A stretch of 64,000 nt of DNA. Origin: Escherichia coli. GTDB taxonomy: Bacteria > Pseudomonadota > Gammaproteobacteria > Enterobacterales > Enterobacteriaceae. The stretch's first letter is position 1. Each line of letters starts with the position of its first letter. Where the stretch lies: assembly GCF_003334405.1 (NCBI RefSeq), contig NZ_QOWM01000002.1, one strand, 5' to 3'. The translations under genes were made by a program, and so were the position numbers. This document shows positions 22,277 to 23,070 of this stretch, one piece after another. Below the pieces are notes generated by a model. It was not told where the DNA came from and did not search any database. It saw only the letters and a program-made list of their open reading frames with translations.

Positions 22277-22316
22277 ATTTAATATCACCTAAAGAGAATT
22301 TGGTTAGCTCAAACTG

Positions 22317-22583
22317 TTGTGTGGATTTTCTGTGGTAGCGGATCCTACCACGACTCTGCAGGTTAAAAACACTGGCAGTCTGAGTGTTAATCGGTATGGA
22401 TGGATTAACATCTGGATGGCTATTTTAGGTCAATTCTTCACCCTATTTCCACTTTTTTTTGAATCGTGTCTCATTCTGTTAAAAACGTGGCTGGAAATTT
22501 TTCCTGACAATGCCGGCATTCTGCGTATTTATCTTTTGCAATTTTCTGCCATTGTGGGGTATAAAACGCGGCGCGCGGCTTAA
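22317..22583 (+). CDS. Dubious small ORF in metK-speA divergent region (possibly the yqgD-type annotation)
   Basis: 88-aa ORF on supplied track; hydrophobic; no recognisable domain; may be an annotation artefact. Confidence 0.2.
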
Positions 22584-22795
22584 ATAAAAAGCACACGACG
22601 TTTCTTTCGTGTTGCCACTTCCAGCCGGGTTGAAATCAGAGTTTTGGCTTGTGGGTTCGTCTTAACAGGCGGCCGTGGAGGTGATACGAAATAATGAACC
22701 GTTGTCTGCTGCTTAACCTGTCTCACCGTTCTGGTGAAGATTCGTTCCCCGCACTCTGCATCTCTGCTTTGCATACCTGCCGATGTTATACCCAT
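22580..22795 (-). CDS. Dubious small ORF in metK-speA divergent region (possibly the yqgC-type annotation)
   Basis: 71-aa ORF on supplied track; no recognisable domain; overlaps a plus-strand 47-codon ORF. Confidence 0.2.
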
Positions 22796-22930
22796 CTCGG
22801 CGCTTCTCAGGATTCAAGAGCTGGTTACAGTTACTGAGGACTGAACAAGGGCGCTCTTGTAAAAACAAGAGTTTTCTCGTGGTTTCGCCGAACTTTCACA
22901 CTTACGTTCGGTTATGTGCTTAATAATGTT

Positions 22931-23062
22931 ATGAAAAAGAAACCGGTTGCGCAGTTGGAGCGTCAGCATTCACTGCTGGAAAATCCATGTGCTTATGGGT
23001 TGTTATCGCAGTTCCAGGCTGCGATAGTCGTTAACTGTTTTACACTTAATAAAATAATTTGA
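22931..23062 (+). CDS. yqgB: Small protein YqgB (43 aa)
   Basis: Hand-translated: atgaaaaagaaaccggttgcgcag... gives [43 protein letters not shown] then TGA; ends 8 bp before the speA ATG. Confidence 0.75.
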
Positions 23063-23070
23063 GGTTCGCT

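Follow-up and report, generated by a model that had tools for sequence, protein, structure and literature searches.

yqgG, a translated 47-codon gene in the speA leader of Escherichia coli, as a candidate leader ORF for Rho-dependent control

Does the long interval between the divergent genes metK and speA encode a peptide that could act as a regulatory leader of speA, with which the arginine route to putrescine begins? The question was raised by a reading of the bare sequence of a 64,000-nucleotide (nt) stretch of K-12-like DNA from Escherichia coli (GCF_003334405.1, contig NZ_QOWM01000002.1; the whole stretch is referred to below as the window), in which a 47-codon plus-strand open reading frame (ORF) at 22694..22837 was reported as unlisted. 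The coordinates and the translation of this ORF agree with the ORF list of the window, but it was absent only from the track at hand: it is certainly yqgG, a known translated small gene and the first of two upstream ORFs (uORFs; yqgG and yqgB) in the speA leader. Comparison of the locus between species suggests that the N-terminus of YqgG is free to vary and that its C-terminal motif is under selection at the amino-acid level, as would be expected of a leader peptide that acts in cis. At a little under an even chance, we propose that yqgG, as a leader ORF, works in cis to gate premature termination by Rho before speA.

The identity of the ORF follows from annotation and from protein family. 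Its position on the plus strand coincides with that of yqgG (b4784, YP_010051195.1) in NC_000913.3, the gene is likewise annotated in NZ_CP032667.1, and the protein carries the PGAP record WP_001297404.1. The peptide matches the Pfam family PF23505 YqgG over residues 1-47 (hmmscan, E = 3.5e-38), so that its membership of that family is certain. Every one of 5,426 complete E. coli genomes contains the interval, with an identity of at least 99% in 5,381 (megablast), and the annotation beneath the match lists yqgD, yqgG and yqgB. Translation has also been established: the ribosome-profiling check of initiation at 22694 that the sequence-only reading had called for was already published with a positive outcome, as an initiation peak of yqgG in Onc112/retapamulin profiles, together with the detection by immunoblot of YqgG carrying a chromosomal sequential peptide affinity (SPA) tag (Weaver et al. 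2019, bioRxiv 10.1101/511675). In the same study the antisense ORF yqgC showed neither ribosome density nor tagged protein. The ORF is thus no addition to the E. coli gene list, being annotated, represented in Pfam and experimentally confirmed since 2019; the context analysis given here is an addition to the PF23505 entry, the page of which gives no function.

Could the frame nevertheless be open by chance? The ATG of metK (minus strand) is at 22276 and that of speA (plus strand) at 23071, which leaves a divergent interval of 794 base pairs (bp; 22277..23070). It is indeed long and rich in ORFs, as had been noted; the earlier extent of 780 bp from 22289 derives from the longest metK ORF, which begins at a GTG further upstream. 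Frames of 46-88 codons are common here (the other ORFs inside the same 794 bp measure 88, 71, 51, 51, 48 and 46 amino acids), and the length of the 47-codon ORF is by itself not unusual. The reality of yqgG follows instead from its conservation and from the published experiments. For the comparison we took 80 speA loci from different Enterobacteriaceae species, 74 of which reached the metK start and were, with the window, compared as 75 sequences, and added two Yersiniaceae loci (Chania and Chimaeribacter). Because nucleotide conservation extends over the entire leader, tblastn identity was uninformative on coding (it gave hits for all four annotated ORFs including yqgC and yqgD), and frame-specific tests were used instead.

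The position of yqgG between metK and speA, on the speA strand, is kept in all 75 Enterobacteriaceae loci and also in Chania and Chimaeribacter, in most loci about 377 nt upstream of speA. Its ATG is invariant across the 75 sequences, and so is GTGGAGGTGAT at its Shine-Dalgarno (SD) sequence, which recurs in the two Yersiniaceae. The sequence-only reading had placed a ggagg SD 11 nt before the ORF; the motif is present, at 22677..22681, with a gap of 12 nt. The frame is open in 70 of the 75 sequences, whereas the other two plus-strand frames contain stops in 74 and 38 of them, and the only common insertions or deletions in yqgG are in frame: the ATG and Gly44 are 132 nt apart in 63 sequences, 126 nt in six and 135 nt in one. 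The conservation check of the reading frame was hence positive, both in the open frame and in the synonymous bias of the C-terminal codons. Given this substitution pattern, the invariant SD and ATG, and the published initiation peak and protein, we consider a chance open frame without function refuted and allot it next to no probability.

Selection on the peptide is restricted to its C-terminal part. Over codons 2-25 the ratio of non-synonymous to synonymous differences (pN/pS) is 0.78, as compared to 0.74-0.93 in the other frames, which indicates no amino-acid constraint, whereas over codons 26-44 it drops to 0.37 in frame versus 1.0 and 3.0 in the other plus-strand frames. At the end of the motif the codons vary while the amino acids barely do (D40 GAT/GAC; S41 TCC/TCA; R42 AGG/AGA/CGG/CGA; A43 GCC/GCT; G44 GGT/GGC). 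Between E. coli and Chania, eight codons of a 15-codon motif differ, seven of them synonymously, and in Chania and Chimaeribacter the peptide is kept despite 10-12 nucleotide changes in 45 nt. A profile search recovered 107 YqgG homologues, including three from Yersiniaceae that have unrelated N-termini and the 15-residue motif at their end. Beyond the R-A-G that closes the motif, the tail ranges from 0 to 6 residues across loci.

In principle, such a pattern might also be mainly the imprint of RNA structure that overlaps the end of the gene. By this account yqgG is translated constitutively, senses nothing and simply shields the leader from Rho or RNases. Several observations agree with it: in the consensus fold, GCCGATGTT (codons 29-32) and the codons of R42-A43-G44 form pairs, all one-sided changes keep these pairs, two predicted hairpins (A and T; see Table 1) overlap or adjoin the yqgG end, and many wobble positions of codons 28-39 are invariant. 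Yet unpaired wobble positions vary synonymously (D40 GAT/GAC, S41 TCC/TCA and the first base, A or C, of R42) while unpaired non-synonymous positions are fixed, the two Yersiniaceae retain the peptide through the nucleotide changes mentioned above, and the in-frame pN/pS is three- to eight-fold below that of the other plus-strand frames. A purely protective role with an RNA-derived motif therefore appears improbable to us.

Besides the peptide itself, its codon usage and base composition are conserved. The codon for Arg30 (22781-22783) is CGA in all but one of 74 loci, and that for Arg42 (22817-22819) is in all 74 one of the four rare Arg codons (AGG, AGA, CGG or CGA), whereas Arg3 and Arg12 use the common codons CGT or CGC. 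By analogy to R12/R13 of speFL, the rare codons at Arg30 and Arg42 could mean selection for slow decoding. At the same time, no part of the leader other than yqgG (C 33%, G 21%) is C-rich and G-poor: the median C/G ratio of yqgG is 1.52, and none of the 72 loci falls below 1.23, as compared to 0.73-0.86 for the rest of the leader.

The setting of yqgG is provided by published work on Rho-dependent termination. Both yqgG and yqgB lie inside a speA leader of about 500 nt that undergoes Rho-dependent premature termination, with a Rho score of 3.1 and readthrough visible on a northern blot; the primer of the 5' untranslated region (UTR) reporter starts at GCGCGGCTTAAATAAAAAGC, i.e. window position 22573, and a Rho-dependent 3' end was mapped at K-12 position 3085854, i.e. 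23128 in the window, 57 nt into speA (Adams et al. 2021, PMC7815308). For fusions with only the 5' UTR, the loss of the rhoR66S effect was reported for cyaA and eptB only (PMC7815308), and because of this the effect on the speA fusion appears to be retained. The candidate pair of uORF and regulated gene that was named in that study is yqgB-speA, not yqgG. A yqgG-yqgB-speAB transcript has been proposed in the literature; a 2025 review of Rho-dependent regulation includes speF and does not include speA.

Taken together, these data are consistent with the following course of events. The leader of the yqgG-yqgB-speAB transcript starts near 22573 and carries, inside yqgG, a C-rich, G-poor tract of the Rho-loading type. 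Because this is the only such tract in the leader, ribosomes on yqgG would cover the place where Rho may load. The invariant C-terminal peptide and the rare Arg codons 30 and 42 may delay or stall the leading ribosome close to the end of yqgG, upon which queued ribosomes would block Rho and transcription would proceed into yqgB-speAB. When yqgG is poorly translated, or when ribosomes clear it fast, Rho would load and terminate transcription in yqgB or early in speA. Poor translation may arise from pairing of the yqgG SD with an invariant anti-SD segment, so that occupancy would be set by initiation as well as by the slow or arrested C-terminus. Finally, because the yqgB stop codon sits in the speA SD, yqgB may hand its ribosomes over to speA by termination-reinitiation. 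The conservation is confined to the last ~17 residues of YqgG, and this is about the length of peptide held in the ribosomal exit tunnel.

How firmly can yqgG be called a regulatory leader of speA? The role, as proposed from the bare sequence, fits the position in the leader, the Rho-dependent termination, the conservation and the excess of C over G, all of which suggests it without proving it. Covarying hairpins at the 5' and 3' ends of yqgG, predicted from the alignment, also count for a leader function. The translation of yqgG and the Rho dependence of the leader are taken from the literature; the conservation, the composition and the predicted structures come from the present analysis; and we infer the location of the Rho site, the arrest of the ribosome and its signal (arginine, Arg-tRNA or polyamine). 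Several points weigh against gating of Rho by yqgG. Five of the 75 loci have a disrupted yqgG (two by repeat insertions and three by 1-nt deletions, two of the latter in metagenome assemblies). The constraints on peptide and RNA are partly confounded, as the motif region is also predicted to pair: the third-position synonymous changes of R42 and A43 are equally tolerated by the RNA helix of the consensus fold, and the restriction of the R42 third position to purines could reflect RNA pairing instead of slow decoding. The composition of yqgG is suggestive of a Rho site, and it is from composition only that the site is located. Accumulation of the tagged protein also fits a small protein that acts in trans, and in the literature that was searched we found neither regulation of speA by yqgG nor a described speA leader peptide. 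All in all, the reading as a leader peptide is reasonable and is strengthened here, though unproven.

A more specific version of this reading, namely that YqgG is a hitherto unrecognised leader peptide, of the arrest or slow-translation type, which responds to arginine, Arg-tRNA or polyamine status through its invariant nascent chain and its rare Arg codons, controls the main (arginine) route to putrescine by masking a Rho site in its own ORF and is coupled to speA via yqgB, is in our estimate possible yet rather doubtful. The speA gene is repressed by polyamines. The comparative pattern described here (the C-terminal peptide, the rare Arg codons, the ORF-confined Rho-like composition and the yqgB stop in the speA SD) provides a specific model that can be tested by point mutation.

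In case YqgG is a free-standing small protein, for instance one that binds SpeA or another partner with its C-terminus, it would merely be co-transcribed with speAB. SPA-tagged YqgG is detectable by immunoblot (bioRxiv 10.1101/511675), the protein has its own Pfam family and its C-terminal 17 residues are under amino-acid-level selection, all of which such a protein would account for. It accounts less well for N-terminal 25 residues that are unconstrained, and unrelated in the Yersiniaceae, for a tail past R-A-G that varies between 0 and 6 residues, and for a conserved excess of C over G in the setting of a Rho-regulated leader. Moreover, a free N-terminus ahead of 17 conserved C-terminal residues is found more typically in peptides that arrest in the exit tunnel (TnaC, SpeFL, SecM) than in folded proteins. 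We therefore deem a function in trans unlikely, albeit not negligible.

If yqgG is a leader ORF, might it act by classical attenuation, as in the trp and his operons, where the ribosome on yqgG would select between an antiterminator and an intrinsic terminator? The candidate terminator is hairpin T (22853-22878), which shows GC/AU covariation and is followed by TTTTCT, 15 nt past the yqgG stop. The hairpin is well supported: its pair 22857:22868 occurs as UA in 41, CG in 22 and UG in 4 loci, 22860:22865 also covaries, its covariation score was reached by none of 500 shuffles, and slid-partner controls were paired in at most 50% of the cells; it is followed by the near-invariant tract TTTTCTCGTGGTTTCGCCG, and the tail is 100% conserved. 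Constrained partition-function folding, in which a 28-nt ribosome footprint was stepped over codons 30-48, nevertheless gave hairpin T a probability of 0.97-1.0 at every masked position, and thus no competing antiterminator. In addition, the Arg codons are single (at 3, 12, 30 and 42) without tandem regulatory codons, no 3' end lies near T in the stored Term-seq table, the uORFs for which a 3' end was listed no more than 200 nt downstream do not include yqgG (Adams et al., PMC7815308), termination in the leader is Rho-dependent, and the Chimaeribacter hairpin lacks a U-tract. An E. coli-specific antiterminator that might form between CAAGAGC (codons 41-43) and GCTCTTG of hairpin T was dropped, as most genera have TCC AGG GCC, which cannot pair. 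Since hairpin T forms regardless of the position of the ribosome, we reject this type of attenuation as very improbable.

Returning to yqgG as a leader ORF for Rho-dependent control, the elements of the locus are collected in Table 1.

Table 1. Features of the metK-speA interval and its surroundings (positions in the window)
Feature	Position	Strand	Basis and remarks
yqgG	22694..22837	+	47 codons; annotation, PF23505, frame conservation, published translation; C-rich, G-poor throughout
C-terminal peptide motif of YqgG	22775..22825	+	codons 28-44; codon table, pN/pS, Chania comparison; near-invariant
yqgG Shine-Dalgarno	22677..22685	+	GGAGGTGAT; 8-nt spacer to ATG
speA/yqgG promoter	22536..22573	+	-35 TTGCAA 22536-41, 18-nt spacer, -10 TATAAA 22560-65, start ~22573
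Leader hairpin 1	22591..22615	+	predicted; covariation GC/AU/GU at two pairs; 96% of cells paired
Anti-SD:SD helix	22616..22683	+	predicted; CACUUCCA (22616-23) pairs with yqgG SD segment UGGAGGUG (22676-83)
Hairpin A	22807..22844	+	predicted in single-sequence folds; spans last yqgG codons and stop
Hairpin T, terminator-like	22853-72, with tail to 22889	+	terminator scan; starts 15 nt after yqgG stop
Hairpin H3, CCGAAC...GTTCGG	22888..22911	+	predicted; yqgG-yqgB spacer; compensatory changes at 3/6 pairs, 95.7% of cells paired
yqgB (b2939)	22931..23062	+	43 codons, second uORF; annotation, NCBIfam NF033844 small_YqgB
speA, biosynthetic arginine decarboxylase	23071..25047	+	ORF list, annotation; downstream gene
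yqgC	22580..22795	-	annotated antisense ORF; pN/pS ~1.0 overall, 0.8 over motif region
yqgD (DUF2684)	22332..22583	+	annotated ORF over metK/speA promoter DNA

Upstream of yqgG, the promoter, with hexamers read from the sequence, is nearly invariant; its block TATAAAACGCsGCGCGCGGCT, which includes the -10 element, is so in 52 loci. The GC-rich discriminator ACGCGGCGCGCGGC (22566-22579), which separates the -10 hexamer from the start site, is near-invariant across genera, and GC-rich discriminators are typical of promoters under negative stringent control by ppGpp and DksA. The anti-SD:SD helix comprises 8 bp, is 99.8% paired and occurs in the single-sequence as well as the consensus folds; both of its arms are invariant, so that covariation lends it no support. 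It encloses two covarying inner hairpins, of which the helix 22657-61/22668-72 shows compensatory changes in four of five pairs. A published Term-seq 3' end (K-12 3086295; Adams et al., PMC7815308) corresponds to window position 22687, directly 3' of the helix and 7 nt before the yqgG ATG, and points to a stable fragment of the 5' leader, about 115 nt long (22573-22687).

At the other end of yqgG, the apex of hairpin A (GCYGG, loop, complement) co-varies across genera when judged by eye; register shifts in the alignment prevented a formal count. Pairing is possible between GGUUUC (22881-86) and a GAAACC that lies in yqgB codons 4-5; neither segment varies. A scan of window positions 21900-23400 with the Rfam 15 covariance models, on both strands and with E <= 1, gave no match.

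The two repeat-bearing loci deserve a separate remark. In Citrobacter portucalensis (L015:2097-2222), and at the same place in Citrobacter sp. On2M (L027), a palindromic repeat of about 125 bp follows yqgG codon 32; it brings an in-frame ATG, so that the motif is still within a 21-codon ORF (MKDEVYTHLGVSQDSRAGNGH). The repeat probably resembles the enterobacterial repetitive intergenic consensus/intergenic repeat unit (ERIC/IRU) elements.

Between yqgG and speA lies yqgB, for which the earlier description (43 amino acids, ending 8 bp before the speA ATG) was accurate, its TGA being found 8 nt before that codon. The blocks MxKKPVAQ, VYGLLS and AIVVNCFTL are conserved, with synonymous variation at V6, A7, H13, V33 and V34, but this is visible only in the per-codon table, the averaged in-frame pN/pS of 0.92 not being discriminating. 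The stop codon falls within the speA SD (TGAGG; window 23060-23073), and in all loci it is located either at -8 or, overlapping the speA start, at +8, the overlap taking the form ATGTCTGA in about a quarter of the species; both arrangements are consistent with translational coupling to speA. Codons 23-26 (22997-23008; GGG TTG TTA TCG) are identical in 75 of 75 loci including the wobble positions, although Leu and Ser have six codons, which points to an RNA-level constraint inside yqgB.

As deletion of yqgB lowers speA and speB mRNA and enzyme levels (a 2026 paper, PMC13159126), the acid-stress and colistin phenotypes for which the YqgB protein is held responsible may come from effects in cis on speA. 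This amounts to a warning that yqgB-deletion phenotypes, including the colistin sensitisation now used in drug screening (PMC13159126), may be polar on speA. For speA itself, the literature describes an internal in-frame start 26 codons in (codon 27, window 23149) that yields a shorter isoform located in the cytoplasm; of the two starts, one lies before and one after the Rho-dependent 3' end at 23128.

Two poorly supported ORFs had been described as overlapping yqgG on either strand. Of the remaining two ORFs labelled in NC_000913.3 (antisense yqgC, b2940; upstream yqgD, b2941), yqgC overlaps yqgG on the opposite strand, whereas yqgD ends upstream without overlap. Outside Escherichia neither shows a conserved coding signature in the alignment: for yqgD the pN/pS is 0.96, stops occur in 57 of 75 loci and the length is not a multiple of three in 42 of 75, and yqgC is probably not a protein-coding gene. 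On the minus strand, hairpin 1 (22612..22593) followed by TTTTTATTT scored as intrinsic-terminator-like in the terminator scan, and its A-tract is conserved; it looks like a terminator that would stop antisense transcription (in the direction of yqgC) just before the speA promoter. The pair yqgG-yqgC has been listed as a divergent excludon (PMC12288877).

If YqgG is such an arrest or slow-translation leader peptide that gates Rho, then the two routes by which enterobacteria make putrescine through a decarboxylase (speF and speA) would each be under the control of a leader peptide, the two peptides being unrelated but following the same Rho-gating logic, and the phenotypes of yqgB deletion under acid stress and colistin would be recast as cis effects on speA. 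The closest known system would be speFL-speF-potE, where an ornithine-sensing arrest peptide controls Rho-dependent attenuation and the rare Arg codons of speFL tune the exposure of the Rho site (bioRxiv 10.1101/604074, PMC6386406). Both yqgG and speFL are short translated ORFs in the leader of a decarboxylase operon for polyamine biosynthesis that is subject to Rho-dependent premature termination; in both a C-rich, Rho-site-like tract overlaps the leader ORF (for yqgG as judged by composition only), a hairpin spans the 3' end of the ORF, rare Arg codons are conserved and the conservation is concentrated in part of the peptide. The two differ in that the YqgG motif has no sequence similarity to SpeFL, that 0 to 6 codons separate R-A-G from the stop in yqgG, so that an arrest would not always be located at the stop codon, and that a second uORF, yqgB, lies between yqgG and speA, the arrest and ligand of YqgG being putative. 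SpeFL is marked by the motif HIRRxxH plus a C-terminal domain.

Different relatives are suggested by other parts of the peptide. Like SecM, with its arrest motif FxxxxWIxxxxGIRAGP, YqgG has R-A-G near the C-terminal end of its conserved segment, but R-A-G is followed in YqgG by N, K, Y, R, Q, T, H, M, I, L or a stop, and in none of 74 loci by Pro, which is essential at this place in SecM; a SecM-like RAGP arrest motif is therefore rejected, and there is no hint of a link between yqgG and secretion. From trpL, hisL and pheL the yqgG leader differs by having neither mutually exclusive structures nor a run of regulatory codons.

In tnaC-tnaAB, the Rho site lies just past the tnaC stop codon, whereas the candidate site of yqgG would lie inside the ORF. 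The tnaC and mdtU-mdtJI systems combine a leader peptide with Rho termination and respond to tryptophan or spermidine (PMC8429421, PMC7815308), and yqgG likewise is a leader ORF in combination with Rho termination. MdtU in particular resembles YqgG in being conserved mainly at its C-terminus and in its connection to polyamine physiology. What yqgG has in common with the class of TnaC, SpeFL and MdtU is a translated short ORF in the leader (leader start at 22573, published translation, coding signature). By analogy, then, the architecture of yqgG is like that of speFL, tnaC and mdtU without shared sequence, with a putative ligand-dependent arrest.

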